A stretch of 64,000 nt of DNA from an uncultured Bacteroidales bacterium (GCA_905233585.1 CAJOFD010000009.1:2136-66135); one strand, 5' to 3'. Shown: positions 3,832-41,922, counted from the stretch's first letter. The notes: generated by a model from the letters alone, not told the origin. Numbers and translations: made by a program.

Positions 3832-3986
3832 CCTGTTATTATGTTGTTAATAAAAATCTTTTATCAAAAAAGGCGATAAATTAAAAAAATATGATAAATT
3901 TGCATTTTCAAAAAATGAATTGATTAAAAAAGGAAGAAGCCGAAAATCCAGAACAGAGTAGGCCTTATAAAATTTTCATAAAAAAA

Positions 3987-23600: not shown

Positions 23601-24046
23601 GTCAGGGACAGAGTCTTAGCGAACAATTTGCCCGCATGGCGGCTCAACAAGAAGCCATTCGGAAAATGATGCAAGATTATCAGTCCCAACTCAAAAAAGA
23701 GGGCAAAGGCTATGACGGGCAAATTGACAAAATGCTCAAAGAAATGGAACAAACCGAAAGAGAATTAGTCAATAAGATTCTGAATCAACAAACCATCAAC
23801 CGTCAACAACAAATTATGACAAGGCTTTTGGAATCCGAAAAAGCGGAATTTCAACGAGAAAAGGATGACCAACGGCAATCTACTCAAGCCAAAGATTATA
23901 AAATTGCCACCCCGCCTGCTTACATTGAACAAGAACTTAAAAAACAAAAGGAAACGGAGTTGTACAAAACCATTCCACCTACCTTGAATAGATATTATCG
24001 CGATAAAGTCAATACATATTTCTATCATTTTCAGTACGAAAAATAG
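20630..24046 (+). CDS. DUF4175-like membrane-anchored coiled-coil protein
   Basis: N-terminal TMs, DDYG and EVWDND motifs, long Q-rich coiled coil, YYRDKVNTYF C-terminus. Confidence 0.75.
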   Translation: MTESKLYIQLQKFINAYYNNKIYKGLVVWVSIAVILFLGLVFSEYFSYFSSPIRAAFFYGFIAITLFNFCVLVAEPLLRKLHVLPQMSYEKAAKIIGAHFPEIDDKLLNAIQLNEQIANCPPEKTELLLACVEQRTMEMNRFHFPLAINWRKTKRYAKYAIVPLLLLLCIFVLNNQLITKPTQRIVRYEQYFEKPAPYSFVLLNKDLKIFENDDFTIKIKIEGEEMPAEVFVKIDNAEYKMQQIAINQFQFELKNVQKNTLFAIFSPEVNSQTYEIQVLPQPILVSFVMDLSYPAYTGKPNEKIENNSDISVPQGTIITWNFYVRNTDAVVFKYQDKNDTLSVAKDNAACRLRLLNSVEYTIFNINTFMQNKDSIAGFVHVVADQYPSIDVKTMHDSVFADRYYFRGNIKDDYGFDKLYFVYTITEKGNSIEQQKIPIEIEKYAVVQDFYYYFDAQTLHLAQGQQVEFYFEVWDNDAINGSKASKSNTEVFYLPSLDEIHQQTANSNKHVKSDLEKLMKESEKILSQIENLKKEMLNQNQATWQEKKEMENLLKQMQDIRKQGEAIVQEQKRQEHINQQYNDLNQEIIDKQKELQKRFDELFNDEMKSMMQELQMMLNQNIDKNKMNQIIDNIKTNTEEINKSLDQQLELFKQLEIEAKMDNIISKSLQLAEQEEQLAEKTLQQSQNDQSLSEQQEHINQQFDVLKSDIQQMENLNKALEDAYNLDSVNALKTAIEQKLHQASEQLKQKHPQKAAQTQKEAAEKMKELAQEIETQMQESEDENLGEDIQTIRQTLDNIVSTSFAQEDILQKMNHTQVHQPAMKDIILQQYKLKDKLKLIEDSIAAVARRQIMVEPFISKQIRTISQAQTDIMNLMSNSQEQMSIMFYGPSYGRQIAAKQQFIMTSLNDLALMLAESMKNMLQKQSQGQAGNRKGNCNSESCGSKPSKSGKKSMKTMRQMQEQLNKQLEEMRKQMQQGGKQPNAQQKGQQQGQGQSLSEQFARMAAQQEAIRKMMQDYQSQLKKEGKGYDGQIDKMLKEMEQTERELVNKILNQQTINRQQQIMTRLLESEKAEFQREKDDQRQSTQAKDYKIATPPAYIEQELKKQKETELYKTIPPTLNRYYRDKVNTYFYHFQYEK

Positions 24047-27513: not shown

Positions 27514-28464
27514 TTATTTGTTGAATTTTTTCGCTACTTCTTTCAGCATCACTTCTGTCATTTTGTCCAAGTCGTAAACGTATGACAGATTCCAGTCTTT
27601 TTTGGATTGGTCATCGTTAATGCTTTGCGGCCAAGAGTCTGCTATAGCCTGACGGAAATCGGGTTCATAGTCAATAGTGAAATCCGGCATTTGTTTTTTG
27701 ATGGATTTGAATACATCGTCTGGACAGAAACTCATACCGCCAATATTGTAACTTTCTTTTACCGTCAATTTGTCGGCATCTGCCTGCATAATGTCTATTG
27801 TTGCTTTGATGGCATCGGGCATAAACATCATCGGCAAATAGGTCTTTTCTGACAAGAAACAGGTGTAGTGATGATTTTTTATGGCTTCGTAGTAGATTTC
27901 AACAGCGTAGTCAGTGGTGCCGCCGCCTGCTTCTGTTTTGTAACTTATCAAACCGGGATAACGGACACTACGGGTATCTACACCGTAACGTTTGTTGTAG
28001 TATGCAATCCAACGTTCACCTGCCAATTTGCTGATACCATAAACCGTATTGGGGTCCATAACACATTGTTGCGGGGTATTTTTGGTTGGGGTACTCGGCC
28101 CGAAAACTGCAATACTGCTTGGCCAGAACAATCTTTTGAGTTTCAATTCGCGGGCAATGTCCAAAACGCCCAACAAACCTTTCATATTAATATCCCAAGA
28201 TGGGAGAGGTTTTTTTTCTGCATTGCCAGACAGGATTGCGGCCAAGTGATAAATTTGGGTGATACCGTATTTTTTCACCACTTCGGCAACTTTGTCTGTT
28301 TCCAATGCGTTTACGATTTCAAAAGGACCGCTTTGGCAAATATCTTCACCTGCTTGGCGAATATCTGCAGCAACAACATTGCTATCCCCATACATTTTTC
28401 TAAGTTCGAGGGTCAATTCTGAACCTATTTGACCGGCACAGCCTATAACTAATATTTTATCCAT
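27514..28464 (-). CDS. SDR-type L-threonine 3-dehydrogenase
   Basis: GCAGQIG, PSSIAVFG, YGISK, GGGTTDYAV and RQAIADSWP motifs of epimerase-like threonine dehydrogenases. Confidence 0.8.
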   Translation of the reverse strand: MDKILVIGCAGQIGSELTLELRKMYGDSNVVAADIRQAGEDICQSGPFEIVNALETDKVAEVVKKYGITQIYHLAAILSGNAEKKPLPSWDINMKGLLGVLDIARELKLKRLFWPSSIAVFGPSTPTKNTPQQCVMDPNTVYGISKLAGERWIAYYNKRYGVDTRSVRYPGLISYKTEAGGGTTDYAVEIYYEAIKNHHYTCFLSEKTYLPMMFMPDAIKATIDIMQADADKLTVKESYNIGGMSFCPDDVFKSIKKQMPDFTIDYEPDFRQAIADSWPQSINDDQSKKDWNLSYVYDLDKMTEVMLKEVAKKFNK

Positions 28465-28596
28465 GTTTGTTACGTATTTTTTAATTTTTGCAAAAGTAGA
28501 AAAAATAAATAGAATAGGATTGTTTTTTGGGTAATTTTTTTCAAGTTTTTTATTTTTTCATTGGTTTGTCTGTAATGCAAGGTGAAAATGAAAGTT

Positions 28597-28884
28597 TTAT
28601 AGGTCTGTTAAAAGAAATCCCATATAGAAAGGAAGAGTAAGGAGGGCTCTGGTTCGTCCTACATTATAATCTCCTAATTTTATGGCATGGTAAACATGAT
28701 ATTTCTCGCTATGTTTCAATATGGTTTGTAAGGATTTTGCATTTCCACTTTTTGCTTTGCATTTTACAATTACACACTCACCTTTGTAGCGTAGGACAAA
28801 ATCTATTTCCAAACCGCTTTCTTTGTGGTAATAATACAATTTTCGTCCCATTTTCTTGTAATGAACAAACCATACATCAAGCAA
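28597..28884 (-). pseudogene. 3' remnant of AAA-ATPase/DUF4143 gene
   Basis: KLYYY...LEIDFVL...K..SGNAKSL...LPFYMGFLL resembles the DUF4143 C-terminus; ATPase part absent and the expected E-x-K reads K-C-K. Confidence 0.7.
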
Positions 28885-28958
28885 AGTTTATAAATGCATA
28901 TTAGCCTCATATTTTTGGGTTATCTTTTATCGGCTCATTTTACTACCTCTCATACTTG

Positions 28959-29507
28959 TTATCTACTATTCCACAAAATATAATCCAATATTTTAATATC
29001 TGACAAATTATATTCTGGAAAGTATTCTTTAAAATCTTTTATAGCTTGTTGTATATCTTTTTGTTTAAGTTTGTTATTTTCTATTTCAATTATTTTATTA
29101 TAAACTACTATAGTATCCTTTAATTTTTCTTCTTTTGTTTTACCTTTTACTTCTAGATTTAAATTAGATAACACATATTGATCCCATATTGGCATATCAG
29201 GATTTATTGTAGATAAAAGTTTACTACAAAATGATGCTTCAATATTTCCTGTTTTCTTATACATATAACCAACTATTTCTTCAAATGTTACATTCTTTCT
29301 ATTCTTAATTGATTCAAAGTAATCATAAAAAACTTTTCTCCAACAATCATTTCTTCTTACACGATAAAATGCATTGAATCTGGTTTGAAACTCAGTATCA
29401 TTACTTATATCGCATTTATAAAGATTATCTTTAATATAATTATACTTATCTAATGCTAAAAATCTAATCACAGCATTTTTTTGAAAATTTGTAAAACTAT
29501 AGTCCAT
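28959..29507 (-). CDS. Hypothetical very AT-rich protein, putative HhH-glycosylase-like fold
   Basis: FNAFYRVRR, EASFCSKLL..INPDMPIWD and KILDYILW motifs; preceded by an AGGGGT Shine-Dalgarno-like sequence. Confidence 0.6.
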   Translation of the reverse strand: MDYSFTNFQKNAVIRFLALDKYNYIKDNLYKCDISNDTEFQTRFNAFYRVRRNDCWRKVFYDYFESIKNRKNVTFEEIVGYMYKKTGNIEASFCSKLLSTINPDMPIWDQYVLSNLNLEVKGKTKEEKLKDTIVVYNKIIEIENNKLKQKDIQQAIKDFKEYFPEYNLSDIKILDYILWNSR

Positions 29508-29663
29508 GATTACCCCTATCTAATTATAATAATCGATTATATCATTACTATTTCCAAGCGACTTTCAAATGCAAAAGTATAATTTTTTTCTTTTTGGGGC
29601 CTTTTTAGGGGGGGAAAAAAATGTTATTTTGAGGTAGTTGAGGATAGCAAAGAACAATCATTT

Positions 29664-29748
29664 TTTTGCGGAACGAAAAAATCAAGAAATTTTTTTTGAC
29701 AAAAAGACAGATTTGTTAAAAAAAAATATATACTTTTGCGGAACGAAA
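29664..29748 (+). promoter_or_regulatory. 15-bp direct repeat pair flanking a sigma-A -7 element
   Basis: TTTTGCGGAACGAAA at 29664-29678 and 29734-29748 (70-bp period); second copy overlaps TACTTTTG at 29731-29738. Confidence 0.6.
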
Positions 29749-30019
29749 TATCAAAATAAATGATAAAAATCAGCGGAATTAGTCTTTTGAATCTATGCGA
29801 AACCGAATCTTGCAGAGAGTGTAAGTGCTTGGTTTTTAATCATTTTCCTCCCCCCCCCCAATTGCGATAATATTTTAATTTTCAGTATCTTACAGTATTT
29901 TGGCTGCCTGTCTCTTACCTATAAAGAGACGGGTTTGTGGTCGTTTTGTAAGTTGCTGTTTTATAGTATTATAAACATTAGAACCTTATTAGGACTAAAA
30001 AAACGCTTGCAAATTCTTA

Positions 30020-30027
30020 TATTTTTG
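30020..30027 (+). promoter_or_regulatory. Candidate sigma-A -7 element of the island operon
   Basis: TATTTTTG followed by CAAC, about 45 nt before ATG 30072. Confidence 0.55.
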
Positions 30028-30071
30028 CAACGGCGACAGATAATCAATAATCATCTAAAAATAAATAATCT

Positions 30072-30974
30072 ATGGCAAGTAAAGTAAGAGTTTATGGTAA
30101 GGCACAGAATAGAACTGTGTTGGGTATTTTCAACGCGTATCTTGTAATGTATCCACATGCTACATTAGAAGATTTTAAGAAAGCATTTCCAAAAGAGTTA
30201 AACCCCGATTCCGGTTGGAAGGTTAATGTACAAACATTGGAAGAATGTGACACAGAAAACGAGAAAAAGTTCTTCTTTACAGACGAAGAGGATGTGATTA
30301 AATTGCAAGACGGTACAAAGATGGTACTTTGCAAAATGTGGACAAAGCCAAGTTTTGAGCGTTTAGTCAATCATGCAAAACAATACGATATTGAAGTTGC
30401 AGAATTTACTGCTGCTGAAAAAGGTTTCGGTAAAAAGGGTGGATGGAGACTTGAATATTTAAATGGTTACGTTCCGCCTAAACCTGAAAAATCCAAAACC
30501 GGTTTGTATATTGCTTGTGCTGCCATTGTGTTTGTCGCAATTTTGACTTTCTTGTTGGCACGCAGTTGCAACAAAGAAACGCAAGTGGTGGAAAAAATAG
30601 TAACCGTTGTAGATACCGTTTATGTGCAACAGATTGAGGAAATGGAAAAGAATTTCAATGCGGCCGAATTTGAAAAAGGCAAAACGGATTTGAGCGATGC
30701 TTCTAAATTCGTGTTGCACGATTTGGCAAAATTAATGGAAAAACAACAATCTATAAAATTGAAAATAGTAGGGCATACTTCTGCCGAAGGCGATGACGCT
30801 TTCAATCAAAAATTGTCGGAAAACAGGGCTAAAGCCGCTGTGGATTTTTGGGTTTCACAAGGTATTGCACAAGACCGTCTGCAATGGGAAGGCAAAGGCA
30901 GCACAGAACTCAAAGATGCTGAAAATCCTGAATCAAATGTAAATAGAAGAACGGAATTTGTTGTAATTGAATAA
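30072..30974 (+). CDS. Single-TM protein: unknown N-terminal domain plus C-terminal OmpA-like peptidoglycan-binding domain
   Basis: TM GLYIACAAIVFVAILTFLLA; GHTS..G...FNQKLSENRAKA and NRRTEF motifs; no signal peptide. Confidence 0.85.
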   Translation: MASKVRVYGKAQNRTVLGIFNAYLVMYPHATLEDFKKAFPKELNPDSGWKVNVQTLEECDTENEKKFFFTDEEDVIKLQDGTKMVLCKMWTKPSFERLVNHAKQYDIEVAEFTAAEKGFGKKGGWRLEYLNGYVPPKPEKSKTGLYIACAAIVFVAILTFLLARSCNKETQVVEKIVTVVDTVYVQQIEEMEKNFNAAEFEKGKTDLSDASKFVLHDLAKLMEKQQSIKLKIVGHTSAEGDDAFNQKLSENRAKAAVDFWVSQGIAQDRLQWEGKGSTELKDAENPESNVNRRTEFVVIE

Positions 30975-31002
30975 TTTAATGTTTAATAAAAAATAAGGAA
31001 TA

Positions 31003-31407
31003 ATGAAAACTGAATCCAAAGTACTTTCTTCATTTCTTGCTGCTGCTGTTTGGGCTGACGGGGAATATGATGAATTTGAAAAAGAATTTGTAAAAGAAGT
31101 TGGTGATGTACTTGAAATAAAGACACTTTCAACTGACTTGGAAAAAACAATCAAAGAAACGGAAAAAATGAACGAGGACGAATTGGCTTCGTTTTTGGAA
31201 ACAGCAGCAAAAAAAGTGGCTGCAACGGAAAAGGAAGGTGTATTGACACTTTGCCTGCAAATGTTGTGTGCCGATGCTTTCTTGTCTATTGACGAAATGG
31301 AGAATTTCTTTGCTTTTGCAGACATTTTGGGGATAGACGAAGAAAAAGCAACTGCAATGCTTGATGAATTTGTCGCTGAAGAAGAAGATTTGATTATAGA
31401 AGAATAA
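31003..31407 (+). CDS. TerB-like protein
   Basis: AAAVWADGEYDEFE and MLCADAFLSIDE...FADILGI, the duplicated (A)DG-x4-E pattern of TerB; acidic. Confidence 0.75.
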   Translation: MKTESKVLSSFLAAAVWADGEYDEFEKEFVKEVGDVLEIKTLSTDLEKTIKETEKMNEDELASFLETAAKKVAATEKEGVLTLCLQMLCADAFLSIDEMENFFAFADILGIDEEKATAMLDEFVAEEEDLIIEE

Positions 31408-31426
31408 CCTTAAAAAATTGAGAATT

Positions 31427-31696
31427 ATGGCAGTACAGAAAACAGCGTCCGGAAAAGTGGACAAACGTACAAAAGAATACAAGGAAATGGTGGAACGTGC
31501 AAAAAAAGCACGTGAGGCACATAAAAAAGCCGCTACAAAACCGACTATTAAGAAAAAAACAACAGCACCAGCCAGACGTGCTGACGGTCGTCTGGACCAA
31601 CGCACAAAAGCAGGTAAAGAAGCCGCTGAACGCATGGCTAAAGCCCGTAAGGCAAAAGGCAGTTTTGTCAACAAACTCAAAAGGTTGTTCAAATAA
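31427..31696 (+). CDS. Small basic protein with a duplicated motif
   Basis: TASGKVDKRTKEYKE and RADGRLDQRTKAGKE; Lys/Arg-rich; A-rich translation-initiation region. Confidence 0.75.
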   Translation: MAVQKTASGKVDKRTKEYKEMVERAKKAREAHKKAATKPTIKKKTTAPARRADGRLDQRTKAGKEAAERMAKARKAKGSFVNKLKRLFK

Positions 31697-31721
31697 GATA
31701 GATTAATACATTGATAAACAA

Positions 31722-31763
31722 TTTTCCCCGTTGGAAATATATATTCCAACGGGTTGGGGAAAA
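31722..31763. other. Intergenic stem-loop
   Basis: CCCGTTGGAA-ATATATA-TTCCAACGGG, with an alternative outer pairing TTTTCCCC/GGGGAAAA. Confidence 0.6.
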
Positions 31764-31784
31764 GAGAGATAAAAGGTAATATAT

Positions 31785-32408
31785 ATGAAGAAAAATCTTT
31801 TGAAAGATGCTCAAGCGGTACTGAATGCCTACAAAAAAATGGAAACTTATCAGATTCAGCAAGAAGTGTTGGATAATCTTGTGGACAAGTTTCCTGATCA
31901 TAAGAACAAGGCCGCTGTTGAAGTAAAGGTTAAATTGCTTAATTTATTATACTCTACAAATGTTCGGGCAACCAATAATATGATGAAACATATTCTTGAA
32001 ATAAAGGATATTGACAAACGTTTGAAGAATGGAGACAAGACTTTGGTGCCGGAGATTGCTAATATTAAAATTAGTGATAAAACATACAATTTTTACTCTT
32101 TTGCCACAAAATATTGTGCCTATCACCAATCCGACAAATTTCCCATTTATGACAATATCGTTGCTAATGTGCTAACTGCACTTTATGCAGATAAAAATAA
32201 AAAAGAGTTTGAAAAAAAGTTGAGGGAGTATGATTTCTATGTGCAGGTATATGATACTTTTATGAAAGAATATGGTCTTGCAGGACATTTCAAATATCGT
32301 GAAGTTGATAACTATATATGGGGAGCATACAAGATTGCAGGAGTAGACTTTGAGATAGAAAAATTGGCTCCAATAGACAAACGCAAGATTATTGAGGTAG
32401 AAATATAA
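31785..32408 (+). CDS. Hypothetical protein, putative HhH-glycosylase-like fold
   Basis: KVKLLNLLYST, YSFATKYC..H....FPIYD and REVDNYIW motifs. Confidence 0.65.
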   Translation: MKKNLLKDAQAVLNAYKKMETYQIQQEVLDNLVDKFPDHKNKAAVEVKVKLLNLLYSTNVRATNNMMKHILEIKDIDKRLKNGDKTLVPEIANIKISDKTYNFYSFATKYCAYHQSDKFPIYDNIVANVLTALYADKNKKEFEKKLREYDFYVQVYDTFMKEYGLAGHFKYREVDNYIWGAYKIAGVDFEIEKLAPIDKRKIIEVEI

Positions 32409-32432
32409 AATAAAAATAATAAAGATTCTGTG

Positions 32433-32858
32433 ATGAAAGTTTCCAAAATTACCGATGTTGAATTTGTTAAATATCATATAGATTTTGAACGTTATGTCCT
32501 TATTTATAGTTCAGATTTTGAGGCTATCTTTGATGAAAAAATGAAAGATACAAACAATTCAAATATGTTGGAGGGACTAGTTAAAATTACAAACAATAAC
32601 AATAAAAATAAAAAATCAGTATATAGAAAATGTATTGGAAGGCATGTCGAAAAGGATATCGTGCAAATGGGTTACAGAACTCAAAGCGAATTGGAGATAA
32701 AGTCTGGCAATGAAGTAGAGATAAAACCTGCAAAATGGTTTCCTTATTATTGGCATAATTCGGATTCGTATTACAAATATCCTTTTAGGATAGCTTGTAT
32801 TGCTTTAATTATAACATGTTTATCCTTTTTATTAAATATATTGTTTCTATTGTGGTGA
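32433..32858 (+). CDS. Hypothetical protein with C-terminal TM anchor
   Basis: Soluble beta-rich domain then FRIACIALIITCLSFLLNILFLLW. Confidence 0.7.
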   Translation: MKVSKITDVEFVKYHIDFERYVLIYSSDFEAIFDEKMKDTNNSNMLEGLVKITNNNNKNKKSVYRKCIGRHVEKDIVQMGYRTQSELEIKSGNEVEIKPAKWFPYYWHNSDSYYKYPFRIACIALIITCLSFLLNILFLLW

Positions 32859-32906
32859 AATAAAAAGTAAAATTAACATAGTATTAATCAATAAAAAAAT
32901 AAAATT

Positions 32907-33656
32907 ATGGCAGAATTTAATATAGACGGTCGCATGCGTGTGGATTCCCTGCAGGCACAATTCAAAGAGGCATTCGGAGGAACTCTCCGTGTTTATTATC
33001 ATCATCACTTTGCAGAAGCATCTGCCCGTTTGTCAGAAATTAGAAGTGAAAATGCACCTGCTACTGGTGAATTAAAAGTCAATGGAAATATGCAGGTTGG
33101 CACTTTTGAGGAAAAAATGATGGAACAATTTGGTATAGAGGTGCAAGTTGCTGATGCCAACAACGAAGTTTTGATTGAAAACGGGGCAACCTTACGAAAT
33201 GCGGCCAATGCGAAAGCAAAGGCAGCATATCAACAACAAGACTATTCTCGAGAATATTGGGTTGAAACATCTTGTGAACAAAATGTGGTTTTGTCAGAAC
33301 ATGTGATAGACTTGTTGAATGAATGTACAGGTAAGAAATATGAACCTGTATTCAGACAAGTATATATCGGGATAAAATTTGATGACAAACCCTGCAATTT
33401 TATAACATTAACACCGCAGAAACGGGAATTGCTTCTTTCAATAAGTGTTGCGGAAAGTGCCAAACATCAAGAAATTTTTGACAAGTATTTTGATGGGGAT
33501 GTTAAATATAATAAAGGTGTTTATCAATTGAAAATCAATACTGAAGATACCGAAAAGAAAGGTGGTTTTTTCAAAAAATTATTGGGCAAAGCGGCAAGCA
33601 ATATAGATCAACTCAAACCGATATTATTACAAGCGGAAAAAGAATATAGAAAATAA
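32907..33656 (+). CDS. Duplicated beta-grasp-like domain fused to a DUF5655-like C-terminal domain
   Basis: N-terminal ~100 aa clearly paralogous to 34309..34623; C-terminal YIGIK...NFITLTPQKRELLLSI. Confidence 0.7.
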   Translation: MAEFNIDGRMRVDSLQAQFKEAFGGTLRVYYHHHFAEASARLSEIRSENAPATGELKVNGNMQVGTFEEKMMEQFGIEVQVADANNEVLIENGATLRNAANAKAKAAYQQQDYSREYWVETSCEQNVVLSEHVIDLLNECTGKKYEPVFRQVYIGIKFDDKPCNFITLTPQKRELLLSISVAESAKHQEIFDKYFDGDVKYNKGVYQLKINTEDTEKKGGFFKKLLGKAASNIDQLKPILLQAEKEYRK

Positions 33657-33692
33657 AAATAAAAATAAGTATTAACCAATTAAAATAATATT

Positions 33693-34241
33693 ATGGCAAC
33701 AACAAAGAAACCAGCCGTTAAGAAATCCGCAGCTAAACCTGCAGCCAGGAAAACCACAACAGTTGCAAAGACAGCAACTTCGACAAAGAAAACTGCAGCG
33801 AAGCCTGCGGCTAAATCTGTAGCAAAGAAAACAACTACAGTGAAGACGACTGTTGAATTGTCGGTAACTGGAAACAAGAAGGTGGAAACTTTGATGAAAG
33901 AATTTACAAAGAAATTTCCATATCTTCGTTTGCGTATTTATTCAGGAGAAGCCAAAAAAGTTTCGGGCTCATTGACTCCATATAGGGTTGACATATCTAA
34001 AACTCTAGCATCAGTACGCGATAAAAGTGCAAAAGGTGGAGATATATCCATTAGCGGCAATAAGAAAATCAAGACCTTGGAAAAAGAATTTGATACCGTA
34101 TTCGGTCTGTATGTACAAGTATGCTACACTGCAAAAGACGGACATCGTTATTATACCAGCGGTACTGCTGACGAGATGACCCTCGCCGCCTTCAATAGGA
34201 AGTGCGAAGCCGATGGCTGCAAAAAAGATGAATGGAAGTAA
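33693..34241 (+). CDS. Histone-H1-like K/A/T-rich tail fused to a duplicated beta-grasp-like domain
   Basis: KKPAVKKSAAKPAARK... followed by LSVTGNKKVETLMKEF and ISISGNKKIKTLEKEF repeats. Confidence 0.75.
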   Translation: MATTKKPAVKKSAAKPAARKTTTVAKTATSTKKTAAKPAAKSVAKKTTTVKTTVELSVTGNKKVETLMKEFTKKFPYLRLRIYSGEAKKVSGSLTPYRVDISKTLASVRDKSAKGGDISISGNKKIKTLEKEFDTVFGLYVQVCYTAKDGHRYYTSGTADEMTLAAFNRKCEADGCKKDEWK

Positions 34242-34308
34242 AATCGGATAGATAAAAATTTAAATTAATCAAATAAACATAGTATTAACCAATTAAAAAA
34301 TTAAAGTT

Positions 34309-34623
34309 ATGGCAGAATTTAACATTGACGGAAGAATGAAGGTAAAAACCTTGAAATCCAAGTTCAAAGAAGCGTTTGGTGCATCTTTGCGTGTTTACAT
34401 GAATGTATCAAGCAAAGGTCGTATGGCGGATGAGGAAGCAACATTGGCAAGCATTCGTGCTGAAGGTGCCAAAGGTGGCGAACTTGCTGTAAAAGGCAAC
34501 ATGAAAGTCGGCAATTTTGAAAACAAAATAGCTGAAATGTATGGTATTGGTGTACAGGTAGCCAATGCAGATGACTCCAAACTTGCAGACAATGAGGCAA
34601 CCCTCATTCAAGCCGGAAAGTAA
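34309..34623 (+). CDS. Stand-alone duplicated beta-grasp-like domain protein
   Basis: Two internal repeats: FNIDGRMKVKTLKSKFKEAFGASLRV...DEEATL and LAVKGNMKVGNFENKIAEMYGIGVQV...DNEATL. Confidence 0.8.
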   Translation: MAEFNIDGRMKVKTLKSKFKEAFGASLRVYMNVSSKGRMADEEATLASIRAEGAKGGELAVKGNMKVGNFENKIAEMYGIGVQVANADDSKLADNEATLIQAGK

Positions 34624-34635
34624 GTTTTTCGTCAG

Positions 34636-34688
34636 AGCAGGGGAACAGCAATGTTCCCTTGCTTACCAACAACCAACGTTCTTTGACA
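34636..34688 (+). promoter_or_regulatory. GNRA-loop hairpin followed by boxA-like sequence
   Basis: AGCAGGGGAACA-GCAA-TGTTCCCTTGCT (no T-tract), then CGTTCTTTGACA at 34677-34688. Confidence 0.5.
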
Positions 34689-34879
34689 TATTGTAGAGAA
34701 AAAATCAGAACAAATTGCTTTCTAATTCATTGTTTAATTGATAATAACGCGTAAACATAGATTGTATTTTGTTATAATTTAATCAGTAATATTTCATATT
34801 TGTCTGTAGAAATCGCAGTACAATTACAACTTTTATTTGAAAAACGAAAGAATTGATATTAAAAATTTTCTCTACAATA
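34689..34879. mobile_element. 191-bp non-coding segment bounded by perfect 14-bp inverted repeats (MITE-like)
   Basis: TATTGTAGAGAAAA (34689-34702) and TTTTCTCTACAATA (34866-34879). Confidence 0.5.
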
Positions 34880-34948
34880 CAAAAATATAAGGATAATCCC
34901 GCAGTCCTGAAATTGCGGAAAAAATTATTTTATTAAATTTTCATTATT

Positions 34949-35191
34949 ATGAGCAAAGAGTATTATCGTAAGAAAATTATTGATTTGCGGGCGAGTCTGC
35001 AAAAAGAAAAAGATGCCAAAAAACGAGACAACGAACATTATGCAAGCCTGATAAAGGGAGCGTCAACGCCATCGTTAAAGGCCTCGTATAGAAAATCAAA
35101 AATTGACTATGCCGCTAGACACGACCGTAACATCGAGTCGCTAAAACGACAGATAGAAAGTGCCAAAGAATCGCTGAAAAGAGAAAAATAA
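34949..35191 (+). CDS. Small basic helical/coiled-coil protein
   Basis: 80-aa K/R-rich heptad-like ORF with an AT-rich initiation region. Confidence 0.7.
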   Translation: MSKEYYRKKIIDLRASLQKEKDAKKRDNEHYASLIKGASTPSLKASYRKSKIDYAARHDRNIESLKRQIESAKESLKREK

Positions 35192-35235
35192 TGGCAGGAT
35201 GGATATAGACAAAATTGTCGGTATAATAAATTGAA

Positions 35236-36975
35236 ATGAGTAGAATCGCGAGTTTTAAACGTGAACTTTCACGTGTTTTTGATGACAACCTGCACACCAA
35301 ACAATGGCACAATTATGTGGATTATACCATTATTGGATTGATTATAATCAGTACTTTGGAAGTGTTCATCTCCACTTTCGCAGGGGTAGAACAACGTTTC
35401 GGCAAAATACTGATATTTATTGATATTTTTACTGTCATTATTTTTACAATTGAAGTTTCTCTCCGCATTTGGTGTGCTGACCTGATTGACGACAAATACA
35501 AAGGTTTTCTCGGAAGGATACGCTATTGTTGCAGTTTCTATGGATTAATAGATATTCTGTCAACATATCCTTTTTATTTGAGTTTCTTATTTCCTTTTCC
35601 CTATACTGCCCTCAAAGTTTTGCGAATAGCCCGTTTGTTGAGAGTCTTTCGCTATATGCATTCATTCCGTTTGTTGGCAGAGGCTTTTAAGTCTAAAAAG
35701 AATGAATTGTGGGTTTCTGTTCAGTTTTTGGCGATTGTAACAATCATATTGTCGCTTATCTTGTTTTTTGTAGAACACAAGGCACAGCCTGAAACTTATG
35801 CAAACGGTTGGGATTCTGTTGCATGGGCTTTTCTTCAATATGTTGGCGATCCGGGCGGATTTGCCGACAATCCGCCTATTACTTCTATAGGACAAATTAT
35901 AGCCGTATTGGTGGGGATACTTGGAATAGCGATATTTGCTGTGCCTGCAGGTCTTATCGGATCCGGATTTACAGAAGTTATGGAAAAAGAACAAAAAGAG
36001 GAGAAGCGTCAAAATGATATAGATAAGATAAACGCAATTTTCCGGTACGTACAATGTCGTTACACAAAATATTTACTGGTTCCCAAATATATGTCAATAA
36101 CAGACATACAGGCACAACAGGGTATAAGCCAACCCAATATTATCGAAGCCGTTTCCGCTTCTGATTTTTTGCGTTTGCGTAATATCGCCACCACTCGTCC
36201 AGTGGAAGAAAAACCAGCAGATAAACTTGTTGTAGAATGTTTTCCTAAAAACAGACCGTATGGCTGCTGTATCAATAGGGGTTCAAAGGTTACAATTGTT
36301 TCCACTTCCAGTTGCAGTGAGGCTGTAATCGGTAATTTTTCGTATTATCTTGCCATGATTGGAGGTTTTAATTATGTAAGTAAAGAAATTGAGTTTGATA
36401 GCAAATATCCTATAACATATTATAATATCAACGATAGGAATGCTTGTCCCAATTTGCCTCTTTTTCTTAATGATATAGATAGTCTTGCAAAAACCGAAGA
36501 TAGTTGGGTTGTTTTTCTACTTTCGGCCAGTGGAGGTCAAGAACCTGTATATCCAACGCAGTTTCACTATATAATAGGTGCGCAAAAAGGTGATGAAACT
36601 TATAATGACCCCAATATAACAATAAAAGATGTTGCCGTATTTGATGCGATGTACAATGAATTGACAGAAACAATACAATCTCAATTCGGGTTAAATTCAG
36701 ACAGACACAAATATTATGGTTCTTCCCCCAGAAACATAAGCCGCCATATCTGTCAAGGAAGAAAAATCAATGCTTTTACCATAAGGATTGCATGGAGCGT
36801 AACTTGTTGGGATTATCGCAATACATTAATTTCCAAAACTATGGCAGATATATTCAACAAGCATTTTGAACCTGAAGTGCAGAAAGAATATTCATCGGAA
36901 TTGACCATTCGCAAACCTAAAATGGACTATGGTTACACATTTTATTCCGACCTGATTGAGAATGAAAAAAGTTAA
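35236..36975 (+). CDS. 6-TM voltage-sensor ion channel with atypical pore loop and large cytoplasmic C-terminal domain
   Basis: S4 LKVLRIARLLRVFR; S6 GIAIFAVPAGLIGSGF; pore loop LQYVGDPGGFADNPP. Confidence 0.85.
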   Translation: MSRIASFKRELSRVFDDNLHTKQWHNYVDYTIIGLIIISTLEVFISTFAGVEQRFGKILIFIDIFTVIIFTIEVSLRIWCADLIDDKYKGFLGRIRYCCSFYGLIDILSTYPFYLSFLFPFPYTALKVLRIARLLRVFRYMHSFRLLAEAFKSKKNELWVSVQFLAIVTIILSLILFFVEHKAQPETYANGWDSVAWAFLQYVGDPGGFADNPPITSIGQIIAVLVGILGIAIFAVPAGLIGSGFTEVMEKEQKEEKRQNDIDKINAIFRYVQCRYTKYLLVPKYMSITDIQAQQGISQPNIIEAVSASDFLRLRNIATTRPVEEKPADKLVVECFPKNRPYGCCINRGSKVTIVSTSSCSEAVIGNFSYYLAMIGGFNYVSKEIEFDSKYPITYYNINDRNACPNLPLFLNDIDSLAKTEDSWVVFLLSASGGQEPVYPTQFHYIIGAQKGDETYNDPNITIKDVAVFDAMYNELTETIQSQFGLNSDRHKYYGSSPRNISRHICQGRKINAFTIRIAWSVTCWDYRNTLISKTMADIFNKHFEPEVQKEYSSELTIRKPKMDYGYTFYSDLIENEKS

Positions 36976-37712
36976 TGATATTTATGCAATTACTCAAACA
37001 ATTATATCAAATCAATAGCAAATCGGGGCATGAAGATGAAATCAAACATGTCGTGCTTGAATATCTAAAGGGACTGCCTTTGTCAATATCTGAAGATGCT
37101 ATCGGCAATTTGTTCATTACCAAAGGAAAATCCCAATATTATCCTTGCATTGCAGCACATTTGGACGAAGTACACTATCCTCAGCATAGAAATTTGCACG
37201 AAATCAATGGAATTGTTTGTGCTACAGATGATGATAAAAATCGTATCGGTATAGGTGCCGATGATAAAAACGGAATATGGATTGCACTGCAATTGCTACA
37301 AAGTGAAGAGTTTTTGAAAGTCGTCTTGTTTGTACAAGAAGAAAAAGACGGAGAAATACCGGGGTGTCGCGGTTCAAAAGCCTGTGATTTACATTTCTTT
37401 GATAATGTGAGATTTATTGTACAATGTGACCGAAAAGGCAATAGCGATATTGTTACTTTTAATGAAAAATATAATGTGCGGCTTTGTGAAGATGATTTTA
37501 TTCCCCTTGCCTTGCAACAGAAATATGGCTATAAACCTGTCAACGGTGGAACTACCGATGTTGTTGCTTTACGCAATCGAGGACTTGCTATTCCTTGTTG
37601 CAACATCAGTTGCGGTTACTACAATGCTCACAAATCCGAAGAATATACGGTGTACAACGATTTGTTCAAATGTTTTAATTTAGTAAAAGATATTTTGACT
37701 TATTATAAATAA
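36975..37712 (+). CDS. M20/M28-type binuclear Zn peptidase
   Basis: AHLD, GADDKNG, QEE, QCDR and YNAH metal-ligand motifs; start overlaps the channel stop codon. Confidence 0.8.
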   Translation: MIFMQLLKQLYQINSKSGHEDEIKHVVLEYLKGLPLSISEDAIGNLFITKGKSQYYPCIAAHLDEVHYPQHRNLHEINGIVCATDDDKNRIGIGADDKNGIWIALQLLQSEEFLKVVLFVQEEKDGEIPGCRGSKACDLHFFDNVRFIVQCDRKGNSDIVTFNEKYNVRLCEDDFIPLALQQKYGYKPVNGGTTDVVALRNRGLAIPCCNISCGYYNAHKSEEYTVYNDLFKCFNLVKDILTYYK

Positions 37713-37717
37713 AAAAA

Positions 37718-38542
37718 ATGGAAATGAGAAATTTATTTAAGGGTATTTTCTTGAATGACAAGTTCATTCTTGCTGTAATACTGCTCAATTCCTACATTAT
37801 TTATATGCAAGTTTCAGGATATGAAAGTTTTACTATTAGTTTGTTGGATGCACTATGTACTTTGATATTTTTGGTGGAAATGATTATCAAACACATGGAG
37901 TATGGTTTTAAGGGATATTGGAAAAATGGCTGGAACCGTTTGGACGGAATATTGGTTATATTATCGTTGCCGTCTTTGGTAGAATTGTTTATTCCATTGG
38001 AAATGTTCAATTTGTCATTTTTGTTGATATTTCGTTTATTGCGTGTGCTGAGATTTTTCCGTGTGTTGCATTTCTTTCCTAATTTCAGCAAAGTGGTACA
38101 GGGATTTAAAGTGGCATTGAGAGAATCGTATGCGATATTATTAAGTTTCTTTGTCATTATTGTGATATTCGGCTTGCTCAACTGTAGCCTGTTTCAGACT
38201 GCCGATCCTGAACATTTTCAAACGCCTCTCCGTTCCATTTATGCCGTATTCCAAATTTGTACGGTGGAGGGTTGGTACGAAATTCCCGATACTATTGCTA
38301 CATATTATGGCTCTGCGTCAATAATGGCAGATATTGTGCGTATCTATTTTTGCTTGATATTGATTTTGGGTGGTATAATAGGTATGTCTTTTATCAATTC
38401 CATTTTTGTAGATGCAATGGTTGCCGATAACAATGACGATGTCAAAGCCCAACTTCATGAGATGGAACAAAAAATGGATAACAACAATAAAAAATGGGAA
38501 CAGGATATAGAAGATATTAAGCAATTACTAAAAAATAAATAA
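37718..38542 (+). CDS. BacNav-type voltage-gated cation channel
   Basis: YWKNGWNRLD, S4 RLLRVLRFFR, filter TVEGWYE, C-terminal coiled coil. Confidence 0.88.
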   Translation: MEMRNLFKGIFLNDKFILAVILLNSYIIYMQVSGYESFTISLLDALCTLIFLVEMIIKHMEYGFKGYWKNGWNRLDGILVILSLPSLVELFIPLEMFNLSFLLIFRLLRVLRFFRVLHFFPNFSKVVQGFKVALRESYAILLSFFVIIVIFGLLNCSLFQTADPEHFQTPLRSIYAVFQICTVEGWYEIPDTIATYYGSASIMADIVRIYFCLILILGGIIGMSFINSIFVDAMVADNNDDVKAQLHEMEQKMDNNNKKWEQDIEDIKQLLKNK

Positions 38543-38545
38543 ATT

Positions 38546-38842
38546 ATGGCAATATTTCTTTGGTTATGGAACTTGGTTTCGCCTATAGTAGTGGCGATGG
38601 GTATGTTGTATGTTTTTACTGGTACCCCTGATACGCTTGTGTTTGTACTTGGCGGTATAGCATCGGCATTGGGATTGATAATAGGTATTGTCGGTTGGGG
38701 GGACATGGTGCCACCTCGTTGGTTTTGGATAAAAAGTCGTACTGATTTAGCTGGAAGCCGTATCGGGACAGCGATTTCCTATGCCATACAATTTTTCTTT
38801 ATCCCTGCCTTTGTCATAGGTTTGATAGAATATTTCGGATAA
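38546..38842 (+). CDS. Small membrane protein (about 3 TMs)
   Basis: Hydrophobic 98-aa ORF 3 nt after the channel stop. Confidence 0.7.
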   Translation: MAIFLWLWNLVSPIVVAMGMLYVFTGTPDTLVFVLGGIASALGLIIGIVGWGDMVPPRWFWIKSRTDLAGSRIGTAISYAIQFFFIPAFVIGLIEYFG

Positions 38843-39325
38843 GGGAAAAAGCTTGGAGGTGTATAAAATTTATGCGGTACAAGAATATTGTTTTCATACC
38901 GCACAAAAGTCTTTTGAATATCGGTTATTTTTTTGAGGTAAATTTCTTTGCTTATGGGGGCAGCAAAGTAATGATTTATTCTTCTTGTATCGCCTCCGAA
39001 AACGTATAGGGTGTGTTCATAGTCAAATATTGTCATCGGATAGCGTAGCGTAACATATTTTGTTTCGGCGGTGTATCAGGTCTAAATAATAAATGTATTT
39101 TACCTTTGAGACTTTTATTTTAGATGTTGAAATATCAGATAGTTTATCCTTTAGTTCGTATTGAGCCTTGATAAAATGTCCTTCGGCATCAGGATAGGCT
39201 TTGATTACGGTTTGGTAATCTTCCCAACGGATAGTCAATGTATTTTTTGTATCGTTTTGCTTGCAAAAACTGAATATGAATGCTGTTATTGATACAGAAA
39301 GCATGTTAAATAAACACTTTCCCAT
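38779..39325 (-). pseudogene. Probable frameshifted secreted/lipoprotein gene (two overlapping ORFs)
   Basis: 39023..39325 has a degenerate signal peptide; 38779..39036 continues in another frame; TACTTTTG on the minus strand near 39364-39371. Confidence 0.4.
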
Positions 39326-39476
39326 TTTGGATAAATTTTTAATGAGCCCTTAAATAATTATTGCAAAAGTATATTTGGGATAATACATCAATAAAACATT
39401 GCCTGTTTTTTATATAGGTTCTTTAAAAGTTTGTATTATTTTTTGTTGTATCTTTGTAGCGTAAAATTGATTTGAT

Positions 39477-39929
39477 ATGAAAAATAAATATTTACTTTCC
39501 GTCTCACTTGTATTTTGCTGTATGTTTGTTTTTGTTTCGTGCAAAAAGGAACCGCACAAAGGAAAATATACGGGTAGTTTTCAAGGTGTGTATCATACAA
39601 GTGCAAACAATACAACGACTTTTACATCATATTATTCATTTCAAATAGAGAAAAGTTCTAATAAAGAAATAGTTATAGAAGAAATGGAACATCATACCAT
39701 GTCCACCTTAAAAAAACAGAATGATTCTATTATCGGTATTATCGGTTTTGGTAATGTTTACAGTGCCACGGGCGAAAAGGGCTTAACAATGAATCTGATA
39801 AAAATGCGTGGAAGGAGTTATTCCCAAGGAGAAAAAAGTTATATAGAAGGAACTTTTGAAGGTGATGTTTATCTTGAAACGGGCAAAAGTTATTTGTCCA
39901 CGGGGACATTTTTGTTGTCAGAACAATAA
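39477..39929 (+). CDS. Hypothetical lipoprotein
   Basis: Lipobox FVSC followed by KKE; TATCTTTG promoter upstream. Confidence 0.75.
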   Translation: MKNKYLLSVSLVFCCMFVFVSCKKEPHKGKYTGSFQGVYHTSANNTTTFTSYYSFQIEKSSNKEIVIEEMEHHTMSTLKKQNDSIIGIIGFGNVYSATGEKGLTMNLIKMRGRSYSQGEKSYIEGTFEGDVYLETGKSYLSTGTFLLSEQ

Positions 39930-40059
39930 TTATTGGATTTCAATCAATAGTTATTGTTTCCCATTCTGATAAGAGTTTAACATTTTGTTGTTATAAAATT
40001 CTTCCTTTTGTTTGTCATTTTTGTCGGAAAAAATGCTATTTTTGTAAAAATTTTAAGTT

Positions 40060-41922
40060 TTGGAACAAATAAATAATTCATACAGCGACAAAAATGTAAT
40101 TACCTTAGAATGGTATAAACATATTCGTATGCGTCCGGGTATGTATGTAGGTCGTCTTGGAGACGGTTCTTCTGCCGATGATGGTATTTATATCCTACTC
40201 AAGGAGGTGATAGACAATTCGATAGATGAATACCATCAAGGATTTGGACGTAGTATAGAAATCGATATTCAAGAAAATCAAGTGCGAGTTAGGGATTTTG
40301 GACGAGGTATTCCATTGGAAAAGACAATAGATTGTGTTTCCAAAATGAATACTGGAGCCAAATATGATTCCGAAGCGTTTCAACAATCCATAGGTATGAA
40401 TGGGGTGGGTACCAAAGCGGTAAATGCCTTGTCAAGTTATTTTAAAGTGCAGTCAATACGAAATGGAAAAACCAAAGTTGCTGAGTTTTCTCAAGGTATT
40501 CTTACCAATGATTATGAAATAACAGATACATCAGAAGCCAATGGTACAATTATAACATTTATTCCTGATACTGATGAAGATATTTTCGGCAATTATTCCT
40601 TTTATCTTGACTATGTTGAGAAAATGTTGTGGAATTATGCTTTTTTGAACAAAGGTTTGACATTGGTTTGCAATGGTAATAGGTATTATTCCAAAAACGG
40701 CTTATTGGATTTGTTGACTCAAAATTTATCTACCGAATTGGCATATCCTATCATACATTTGCAGGAAGGTCAGTTTGAATTGGCTCTTACGCATACCCAA
40801 AGAGGAAGCAGTGAAGAATATTTTACCTTTGTCAATGGGCAATATACCATACATGGTGGTACGCATTTGCAAGCCTTGCGTGAAGCATTGGTGAAATGTG
40901 CCCGTGATTATTTCAAAAAAGATTATGATGCTTCAGATATTCGTCAATCTATTTGTGCGGCTATGAGTATCCGTATTCAAGAACCACAGTTTGAAGGGCA
41001 GACCAAGACCAAATTGGGCTCTAATGATATGAAAAAAGGCGGTCCAACGGTTAGATGGTATATCAACGATATGGTTTGTCGCTTGTTGGACAACTATTTG
41101 CACATGCATCAAGAGGTTGGGGCTATTTGGCAACAAAAAATTCTTGAAGCAAAAAAAGAACGGGAAGAAATAGCCGGATTGAAAAAATCATCTAAAGAAA
41201 GTGCCAAAAAGACAAGTTTGGTGAACAAAAAATTAAGAGATTGTCATGTGCATTTGACCGATTCAACGCCAAAGGGGGAAGACCAGCGTTTGGAAACTAT
41301 GATTTTTATTACCGAGGGAGAATCGGCATCGGGTTCTATTACAAAATCAAGAAATGCACAATTGCAAGCAGTCTTTTCGTTGAGGGGCAAGCCTCTGAAT
41401 TCTTATGGCAAGCCCAAAAAGATTGTTTATGAAAACGAAGAGTTTAATTTGTTGCAAGCCGCTCTGAACATTGAAAACGGCTTGGAAGGTTTGCGTTATA
41501 ATAAAATTATCATTGCAACCGATGCCGATGATGACGGTATGCATATTCGTTTGTTGCTGATGACATTCTTTTTGCAGTTTTTCCCCGAATTAATACGTAT
41601 GGGGCATGTATATATTTTGCAGACTCCATTGTTTCGAGTGAGAAACAAGCAAGAAACCCGATATTGTTATTCGGAAGAGGAAAAAAATGCAGTCAGCAAA
41701 CAATTAAAAGGAAAGTTGGAGGTAACCCGTTTTAAGGGTTTGGGAGAAATTTCCCCAGATGAGTTCAAACATTTTATTGGTAAAAATATTCGTTTGGACC
41801 CTGTGGTACTCACCAATTCGCCTATAGCCGATTTGTTGGACTATTATATGGGCAAAAATACGCCTGAAAGACAGGGATTTATTATAGAAAATCTACAAAT
41901 AGAAGAAGATATAATTTCTTAA
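40060..41922 (+). CDS. parE: DNA topoisomerase IV subunit B
   Basis: [40 protein letters not shown] and TRFKGLGE motifs; Bacteroidota ParE type; TTG start. Confidence 0.9.

Follow-up and report, generated by a model that had tools for sequence, protein, structure and literature searches.

A mosaic accessory island of Bacteroidales carrying tandem-repeat proteins, a peptidoglycan-anchored protein and voltage-sensor channels

Gene content of the block

The window analyzed here is a stretch of 64,000 nucleotides from an uncultured Bacteroidales bacterium (GCA_905233585.1, CAJOFD010000009.1:2136-66135), and our subject is a block of 13 genes (g1 to g13) at positions 30072-38842 within it. All 13 open reading frames (ORFs) are present on the + strand at the positions given in the original prediction, which had described them as co-directional and mostly tightly spaced; the gaps are mostly short, and the lone exception is the 326 bp between g8 and g9. 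The domain content proposed for the block also largely agrees with our results, since Pfam and transmembrane (TM) scans concur for g1, g2, g5, g10, g12 and g13, and g3 and g9 are basic proteins. The idea of one 13-gene unit has to be narrowed, because the conserved core is smaller and g4, g5, g11, g12 and g13 are facultative. The block represents a local form of a mosaic accessory island carried by gut and rumen Bacteroidales. By homology counts, its recurrent core is composed of g6-g8, which share a domain of about 100 aa here named REP, together with g9, g1 (with or without TerB/g3) and g10 with an adjacent peptidase. The 13 genes are the following.

g1, 30072..30974, + strand: protein with a cytoplasmic N-domain (about 1-140), a TM segment (145-163) and a periplasmic OmpA-like peptidoglycan-binding domain (200-292)
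g2, 31003..31407, + strand: acidic TerB-domain protein, 134 aa, pI 4.1
g3, 31427..31696, + strand: small basic protein, pI 11.2, with two KRTK..AKKAR-type repeats
g4, 31785..32408, + strand: 207-aa protein without family match, a variable cassette gene
g5, 32433..32858, + strand: 141-aa tail-anchored protein with a C-terminal TM segment (123-141), genome-specific
g6, 32907..33656, + strand: REP domain (1-100) and a C-terminal domain without family match
g7, 33693..34241, + strand: Lys/Ala-rich H1-like tail (1-50), then a divergent REP ending in a Cys motif
g8, 34309..34623, + strand: stand-alone REP of 104 aa made of two repeats, each about 50 aa long, and the most highly conserved of the island genes
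g9, 34949..35191, + strand: 80-aa basic helical protein, pI 10.0, 66-88% identical across loci
g10, 35236..36975, + strand: 579-aa protein, a 6-TM voltage-sensor channel (25-252) fused to a cytoplasmic domain of 320 aa with a predicted Zn-hydrolase fold
g11, 36975..37712, + strand: compact clan-MH (M20/M42-like) metallopeptidase-like protein, below family cut-offs
g12, 37718..38542, + strand: 274-aa single-repeat CaV/BacNaV-type channel with a T-V-E-G-W pore and four S4 arginines
g13, 38546..38842, + strand: 98-aa membrane protein with three hydrophobic segments

Homologous loci were collected from two directions. For the forward set, one genome per species was scanned with g8, which gave 68 loci; 53 of them are from Bacteroidales and form 52 groups at 95% DNA identity, and the record titles of the set include Bacteroidaceae, Muribaculaceae, Paludibacteraceae, Rikenellaceae/Alistipes, Ca. 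Limisoma and Alloprevotella. Forward counts were made by tblastn with the window proteins and representatives of neighbour families at a query coverage of at least 50%, because crude longest-ORF calling overlooked g2 and g3 even in the window. The reverse set consists of metagenome contigs picked by the C-terminal domain of g10 only, some of them titled "human gut metagenome"; it holds 79 loci, 30 of which have at least 7 kb upstream.

REP is what unites the three paralogous proteins with a duplicated domain that had been recognized in the block. Residues 1-100 of g6 are 54% identical to g8 (E = 6e-28) and g7 is 33% identical to it (E = 2e-9). Moreover, g6 is 97% identical to its counterpart in the same-genus genome G005, and g7 homologues are 55-72% identical in 15 loci; the g7 tail gave weak HC2 or H1-like matches in family scans. 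The leaders of the three genes (32870-32904, 33668-33690 and 34271-34305) have in common a motif of about 23-35 nt, AGTATTAACCAAT.AAAA..., 5' of an ATGGCA start, and therefore the duplications took in the leader too.

Searches with g8 gave 989 homologues of near-equal length. Apart from g8 itself, 119 are listed; their identity is 71-79%, none possesses a Pfam domain and all are designated "hypothetical protein". A REP profile compared with 1.84 billion representatives matched 1453 clusters (at 50% identity) with an E of 1e-3 or lower, 700 of them with 1e-10 or lower, and by these matches REP is a large domain family without a Pfam match. The AF2 model of g8 (54-row alignment, pLDDT 90.2) shows two beta-alpha-beta-(beta)-alpha repeats. 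These repeats had been called ubiquitin-like, a label that stands only as a weak tandem-ubiquitin/ISG15-type resemblance of the fold: the best Foldseek matches in the PDB are linear di-ubiquitin and ISG15 (E 0.019-0.05, TM-score about 0.33), VIA gave no clear match (Z <= 4.3), and two UBL Pfam models were each matched by one of 105 long REP forms.

In most of the 150 best profile matches, REP occupies residues 1-100 of longer proteins with variable C-termini. A manual count among 120 listed longer homologues found OmpA in 54, LRR_5 in six, WG repeats and the ribosomal L12 C-domain in three each, and TerB and FGE-sulfatase in two each. When the 105 long forms were scanned, most C-termini had no Pfam match, DUF4116 was present in six, and LRR, RCC1, FGE, OmpA and TerB occurred once each. 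REP is thus the N-terminal partner in fusions with g1-type anchors, TerB, LRR and other modules, and one such protein (P0155) has the layout REP, linker, g1 N-domain, TM, OmpA. Because REP lies N-terminal to the TM segment here and the OmpA domain of the protein is necessarily periplasmic, REP would be cytoplasmic. By the usual fusion argument, the fusions to the g1-type anchor and to TerB imply that the free REP proteins are functionally linked to g1 and g2.

The expected TM-OmpA protein is g1, which has one TM segment and matches OmpA (PF00691) with 62.4 bits (cut-off 27.2, E = 5.5e-17). Likewise, the TerB-like assignment of g2 holds, as its 29.2 bits exceed the gathering cut-off of TerB (PF05099), 24.4. 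Of the 24 loci holding both genes, 19 have TerB downstream of g1 at a distance of at most 400 bp. The two small basic proteins foreseen are g3 and g9. The former is 74-77% identical to homologues that follow TerB in L021, L025 and G020, and its start is probably the ATG at 31427, not the TTG at 31418 chosen by the ORF lister, because the homologue begins with MAIQK and the ATGGCAG context is repeated. For g9, the mean column identity of the alignment is 71%. A complex prediction for g8 with g9 scored 0.00 against a mark of 0.32, from which no verdict was drawn. We also ran hhalign on the g1 N-domain, REP and two domains from the relatives' loci, the C-terminus of a KAP NTPase and the c18 domain; there were only weak links, on which no claim is based (g1 N-domain with the KAP C-terminus, E = 0.003, probability 11%; KAP C-terminus with c18, E = 2.6e-4, probability 42%).

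Two different 6-TM voltage-sensor channels had been proposed, and both g10 and g12 indeed match Ion_trans and have an S4 with Arg at every third residue. The match of g10 has 68.7 bits (E = 5.9e-19), and KCNQ chains are found at E of about 1e-22. With Kv-type channels g10 shares this Kv7-like 6-TM core, but it is without the TVGYG filter and has an additional Zn-hydrolase-fold domain. In place of the T-V/I-G-Y/F-G K+ selectivity filter, an atypical GDPGG-type pore is conserved, which reads YVGDPGGF in g10 and YIGDPG[GN]F in 11 homologues taken from a 30-row alignment.

The C-terminal domain of g10 has no sequence-family match in Pfam, and residues 262-579 were modeled with a pLDDT of 87.6 and a pTM of 0.89. 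The best match of the model is 2odf_A, N-formylglutamate amidohydrolase-like (Z 13.7 over 187 residues), followed by a second such chain (Z 13.3), poly-gamma-glutamate hydrolases (Z 12.0 and 11.5) and M14 carboxypeptidases (Z 9-11); Foldseek gave 54 matches at E <= 1e-3. According to the model, the domain has a Zn-hydrolase-type fold, and both an enzyme and a ligand sensor are possible. Within the domain fragment, D86, R87, D152, H183, D204 and E284 are nearly invariant. Our literature search found no description of a Zn-hydrolase-fold domain on a channel.

Peptidase-type genes adjoin g10 on both sides: g11 is within 400 bp downstream in six of six loci holding both, and 13 of 22 loci have a pyroglutamyl peptidase no more than 400 bp upstream. 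As for the M20/M28 peptidase claimed for g11, the resemblance to clan MH of the M20/M42 type is retained, but every family score is sub-threshold, with 20.5 bits for Peptidase_M42 (cut-off 23.2) and 39.9 bits for a PepT-like family (E = 2.6e-10, cut-off 274), and M42 structures match at E of about 2e-4 over residues 5-67.

In the g10 tree (30 rows), Bacteroidaceae-labelled rows fall into three clades and an Alistipes-labelled row stands beside a Bacteroidaceae row. Transfer is suggested by this and not demonstrated, since the labels of metagenome-assembled genomes are coarse and one locus, L035, has two paralogues. These two g10-type channels of L035 belong to different deep clades, so the g10-type family has old paralogues. 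A third Ion_trans-type channel is encoded in the window's genome outside the island (G000:C29:18993-19772) and is 28-29% identical to g10 over about 260 residues.

The Ion_trans match of g12 is stronger (108.3 bits, E = 4.7e-31). With a single 6-TM repeat of about 270 aa, an S4 (FRLLRVLRFFRVL) with Arg at every third residue, four in all, and an acidic T-x-E-x-W pore, its sequence has the features of BacNaV-type channels such as NavMs, NavAb and NaChBac. Both the S4 and the TVEGW pore are conserved among homologues (T-[VI]-E-G-W). The difference from BacNaV is that the best solved relatives of g12 are eukaryotic T-type CaV repeats (E = 1.9e-35), which outscore the bacterial NaV chains (E about 2e-19). 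The 3-TM protein announced downstream is g13; it lies within 400 bp after g9 in nine of 16 loci and after g12 in the window, G007 and G020.

The remaining two genes are variable. No match was obtained for g4 in Pfam, NCBIfam or PADLOC, which leaves its description as glycosylase-like unsupported in these databases; full-length homologues exist in two of the 68 loci, and there is a weak link to a family named c34 (E = 5e-4). The single C-terminal TM segment of g5 agrees with its description as tail-anchored, and no homologue was found in any of the 68 loci.

Linkage, distribution and surroundings of the block

Independent occurrence of the homologues had been named as an outcome that would speak against the original prediction. 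What we found is conserved linkage, strong and reciprocal, since it is kept both in g8-selected and in g10-selected loci. Among the 53 Bacteroidales loci of the forward set, g9 is present in 46, g1 in 38, g10 in 33, TerB in 25, g13 in 16, g11 in six and g12 in five (strict threshold). Genes that the window does not have were also frequent there, namely a Ser/Thr kinase (30), a pyroglutamyl peptidase (24; family match 2.3e-45), a 428-aa lipoprotein (24) and the KAP NTPase (13). All forward matches are on the strand of g8 except two kinase genes and a divergent 195-aa gene. Restricting the set to loci flanked by 8 kb or more on both sides left 29, with g9 in 27, g1 in 23 and g10 in 22. All four of g1, REP, g9 and g10 are found together in 27 loci; 20 of these have them in that order, which is the window's, and the other seven show two other orders.

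The 30 g10-selected loci with sufficient upstream DNA contain REP in 27, g9 in 27, the c18 domain in 22, the pyroglutamyl peptidase in 19 and g1 in 17, all on the same strand. They form 21 groups at 95% identity, with REP in 18 and g9 in 18, and none matches a forward genome locus at 95%. Chance clustering was rejected, as the 53 g8-selected and the 30 g10-selected loci mostly keep their partners, and we consider the conserved linkage of the island genes to be real with little room for doubt.

The composition of the block varies widely around this core. Across the loci, 37 distinct accessory families are inserted in it, and a lipoprotein family (c6) and DUF4230 envelope proteins recur. The genes usual in relatives (Ser/Thr kinase, pyroglutamyl peptidase, 428-aa lipoprotein, c18 domain and KAP NTPase) are not in the window's genome. 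Multi-gene matches to the DNA of the block were obtained in three of 40 related genomes (G005, G007 and G020), and within the genus the island is in three of eight genomes. In G005, of the same genus, every gene of the block but g5 was found, 12 in all, with a DNA identity of 81-93% and scattered over small contigs. G007, also of the same genus, has a shorter version with the N-half of g1, g4, g8, g7, another REP, g9, g12 and g13 and without g10/g11, and G020, of another genus, has REP, g1, g2, g3, g8, g9, g12 and g13 and lacks g10/g11 and g4-g7. Among 301 genomes sampled across the order, seven have g8. The block thus behaves as the accessory island it was taken for, patchy even within a genus and variable in content.

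The slot between two REP genes holds different nuclease-like genes in different genomes. In L013, a same-genus relative, an extra 101-aa REP and a 138-aa PDC-M11B-like gene (E = 3e-32) lie at 2004-3128 between the g7 and g8 homologues; G005 has an extra REP and PDC-M11B cassette between g7 and g8, where the window has only 67 bp. PADLOC matches of the relatives include PifA/PDC-S20 (about 1e-33) and QatA for the KAP NTPase, PD-T4-6 for the kinase (3.5e-38), PD-T4-3 for a GIY-YIG protein (1e-51), mREase_II for a PvuRts1I-SRA protein (5e-85), PDC-S29 for an EcsC-TerB protein (6e-72), UzuA (5.5e-66), PDC-M11B (3e-32) and PDC-S26 (PDDEXK_4). These defence homologues sit inside the same co-directional block.

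REP genes were also seen in more distant records. L063, titled Helicobacter cetorum, has three tandem REP genes and a KAP NTPase, as in Bacteroidota loci, and may represent contamination or transfer. In Flavobacteriales/Cytophagales (L071, L072, L074-L076, L078 and L080), REP pairs 37-49% identical to g8 occur without channels or g9 and adjoin a KAP NTPase, a PD-T4-3-like GIY-YIG protein, a DUF2779 protein and a PvuRts1I-SRA enzyme.

Both flanks of the block contain decayed genes, as had been noticed. On the right (38779-39325, - strand), a lipoprotein gene is broken into two frames with internal loss, and an intact 191-aa paralogue with about 75% DNA identity exists at G000:C18:15490-16065. 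On the left (28597-28884, - strand), a 95-aa ORF ending in ...EIDFVLRYKGECVIVKCKAK... is seemingly the C-terminal remnant of a larger gene, which we take to be of ATPase type. The insertion between tdh and parE that had been claimed is not demonstrable, because these flank genes are on different contigs in five same-genus genomes. Comparison of g4 with a 182-aa ORF of the left flank was not significant (E = 0.12), and neither TerC nor TerD was matched in Pfam by any of the seven flank proteins or the 13 block proteins.

Several features were noted in the noncoding DNA. A stem-loop with a 13-bp stem at 34635-34664, 12 nt past the g8 stop (-21.9 kcal/mol, z -4.9, 0 of 200 shuffles as stable), has no U-tract and is located at the start of the only long gap of the block; it may be an attenuator or processing site separating g8 from g9-g13. 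Upstream of g1, in an AT-rich stretch of 565 bp, the motif TTTTGCGGAACGAAA occurs twice (29649-29678 and 29719-29748), 70 bp apart and beside a 22-nt inverted repeat (29571-29592/29718-29739), and this pair may be an operator or promoter element. A scan for sigma-70 promoters and terminators gave no useful excess over shuffles, the sigma-70 model being unsuited to Bacteroidota promoters, and Rfam gave no match in 28000-41000 at E <= 0.1. Elsewhere in the window, a DUF805b cis-regulatory RNA motif lies at 3930-3964 (41.3 bits, Rfam gathering score 35.6), and very strong AT skew (0.36 and 0.30) was observed at 22001-24000, within a 1138-aa ORF (20630-24046).

Relation to described systems

The gene set was thought not to be a named system, and no PADLOC v2 system matches it. 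The window's own PADLOC matches are two and both weak, ZorB on the OmpA part of g1 (E = 1.2e-5) and PDC-S48 on TerB (E = 8e-6). A protein atlas yielded only unnamed "hypothetical protein" clusters. Our literature search found no description of this gene set, which is not proof that none exists.

Zorya, as outlined in two sources, is an anti-phage system made of a ZorAB membrane complex and soluble effectors (PMC11946911, PMC11890865). With respect to that outline, the island is alike in having an inner-membrane protein with a periplasmic OmpA/MotB-type peptidoglycan-binding domain and an ion-conducting membrane part, and nuclease-type partners are also present in its relatives. ZorB is made up of an N-terminal TM plug and a peptidoglycan-binding domain. 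The weak match of ZorB to g1 is confined to residues 226-296, and the TM segment of g1 follows a cytoplasmic domain of 140 aa. We know of no ZorB with a domain of this kind. Moreover, the ion paths of the island are voltage-sensor channels of the tetramer type, not a 5:2 stator, and PADLOC and Pfam found no ZorA/MotA-like and no ZorC, ZorD or ZorE match among the 13 window proteins. Zorya was rejected for lack of a MotA-like ZorA partner, with which ZorB forms the channel.

A second comparison is with the EAD-coupled NTP-dependent conflict systems of Kaur et al. 2020, in which, as the main account has it, a small non-enzymatic domain occurs in several proteins of a neighbourhood, terminally fused to differing modules (PMC7159879). 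REP is similar to what that account describes in being present in several neighbourhood proteins (g6, g7 and g8) and in its terminal fusions elsewhere to g1/OmpA, TerB, LRR, WG and FGE. It is also small (104 aa) and matches no enzyme family, so that it presumably lacks catalysis. Repeat or FGE-type "sensor" domains and TM-OmpA effectors are described for EAD systems too (PMC7159879). There are differences as well: the REP paralogues are ancient orthologous groups and not lineage-specific pairs, and an NTPase core (KAP) is found in only 13 of the 53 loci and not in the window. REP is not known to us among the EADs listed in that paper (PMC7159879), whose supplements may list further adaptor domains. 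The island resembles Zorya and the adaptor-coupled conflict systems, yet belongs to neither.

The TerB domain of g2 calls for a third comparison. TerB is a component of Ter stress-response loci and of the Shango defence system, and in the island's relatives it is also fused to REP and to EcsC (PDC-S29). TerB is listed in the Millman 2022 preprint. The fixed partner of TerB here is the OmpA-anchored g1, and TerC, TerD, TerZ and TerA are all missing from the window, as is any partner of helicase or ATPase type. A Ter locus was rejected, as only TerB is present without TerC/TerD-family genes, and so was Shango, as TerB has no helicase or ATPase partner in the window. Finally, homologues of PifA/KAP, PDC-S20, PDC-S26, PDC-S29 and PDC-M11B occur within the block in relatives, and none is in the window or its genome; they look like exchangeable cassettes and not like parts of the core.

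Possible roles of the island

We favor, at a probability of about 0.45, the reading that the island is a conflict module anchored in the envelope and directed most likely against phages, in which REP serves as adaptor and the channels serve as effectors. What the analysis establishes is the gene content, the linkage in both directions, the REP fusions, the modeled fold of the g10 C-domain and the defence genes lying within the block in relatives; these, the flanking peptidases of g10, the patchy distribution and the cassette turnover speak for the reading. That the proteins form a complex, what triggers it, that the channels are effectors and that phages are the target are inferred. The REP domains would be shared adaptors that tie g1, TerB, DNA-binding-type tails and the repeat-type sensors of relatives into a membrane-proximal complex. 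Upon a trigger, g10 and g12 would collapse ion gradients, and the hydrolase-fold domain and neighbouring peptidases might gate or arm the g10 channel. The basic proteins could provide a link to nucleic acid.

Several points weigh against this reading. First, g8 and g9 are 66-88% identical across families by sequence, which appears unusually conservative for immune genes. Second, the REP paralogues in a locus are 33-54% alike, against 71-79% to orthologues in other families, which is not the pattern expected of EADs as described in PMC7159879. Third, none of the window's 13 proteins has a convincing PADLOC match, the defence genes being only in relatives, and the matches of relatives were counted without a background rate from random neighbourhoods. 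Fourth, phage records, plasmid records and IMG/VR gave no match to g8, although a pattern scan detects only exact peptides and carries little weight; as far as these data go, mobility of the island is unproven. Moreover, the loci come from related lineages, and the linkage counts are not statistically independent.

The strongest competitor, to which we would give perhaps half the credence of the favored reading or slightly more, is that independent small units (REP with g9, g1 with TerB and g3, g10 with peptidases, g12 with g13, and single nucleases) are co-inherited or transferred as a block and are not co-functional. This would fit the strong mosaicism with its 37 inserted families, the facultative g12/g13, g4 and g5, and the retention of the rest where G007 lacks g10/g11 and G020 lacks g10/g11 and g4-g7. 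The units also have tight adjacencies of their own, as in g1-TerB (19 of 24), g10-g11 (six of six) and g9-g13 (nine of 16). However, REP is fused to g1-type anchors and TerB in many genomes, which ties at least the REP-g9 unit to the g1-TerB-g3 unit. In addition, the g10-selected loci retain REP and g9 in 27 of 30 despite reordering and a protein divergence of about 40-60%, and all parts are on one strand.

Somewhat less probable still is a physiological role in envelope, ion or peptide signalling without any phage involvement. Here glutamate-type peptides or metabolites would be the signal to which the channels adjust membrane potential or cation flux, ligands would be sensed or processed by the hydrolase-fold domain, the pyroglutamyl peptidase and the M20/M42-like peptidase, and g1/TerB would report envelope or metal stress. 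The resemblance of the g10 C-domain to N-formylglutamate amidohydrolase and poly-gamma-glutamate hydrolases agrees with such a role, as do the neighbouring pyroglutamyl peptidase (2.3e-45) and aminopeptidase-like protein, the recurrent c6 lipoprotein and DUF4230 envelope proteins, and a conservation of g8 and g9 like that of housekeeping proteins. It is harder to reconcile with the patchiness even within the genus (three of eight genomes), with the nucleases, PifA-like NTPases and type IV restriction enzyme that relatives have within the block, with a cassette that differs between close relatives, and with the absence of linked transporter or metabolic genes. That REP is an N-terminal trafficking or packaging tag, with the island encoding an export or assembly apparatus for variable C-terminal cargo (LRR, RCC1, DUF4116, FGE-sulfatase, WG repeats), is very improbable: it would account for REP at 1-100 followed by variable C-termini in most of the 150 best family matches and for the repeat-type, cargo-like domains among these, but no secretion ATPase, secretin or known export component is in the window or the recurrent families, and REP is also on TerB and on the cytoplasmic side of the TM-OmpA anchor, which are not cargo.

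Returning to the conflict module, a bolder version of it can be put forward only tentatively, and we hold it to be rather doubtful as a whole. It says that this is an undescribed Bacteroidales immune module in which a new tandem-repeat (possibly tandem ubiquitin-like) adaptor wires a peptidoglycan-anchored protein, TerB and exchangeable sensors or nucleases to channels of the voltage-gated superfamily, one of them gated by a Zn-hydrolase-like domain. If true, these would be the first Kv/CaV-type channels as abortive-infection effectors.

The analysis uncovers a large domain family without a Pfam match (1453 clusters at 50% identity), reveals a voltage-sensor channel fused to an enzyme-like domain, and defines a specific candidate system, open to testing, whose occurrence in gut and rumen Bacteroidales is recurrent. 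To our knowledge, the role of voltage-gated-type channels in anaerobic gut bacteria is largely unknown. Should g10 and g12 prove to be immune effectors, bacterial immunity would gain channels of the voltage-gated type; otherwise, the island would still give access to the role of such channels in these bacteria.

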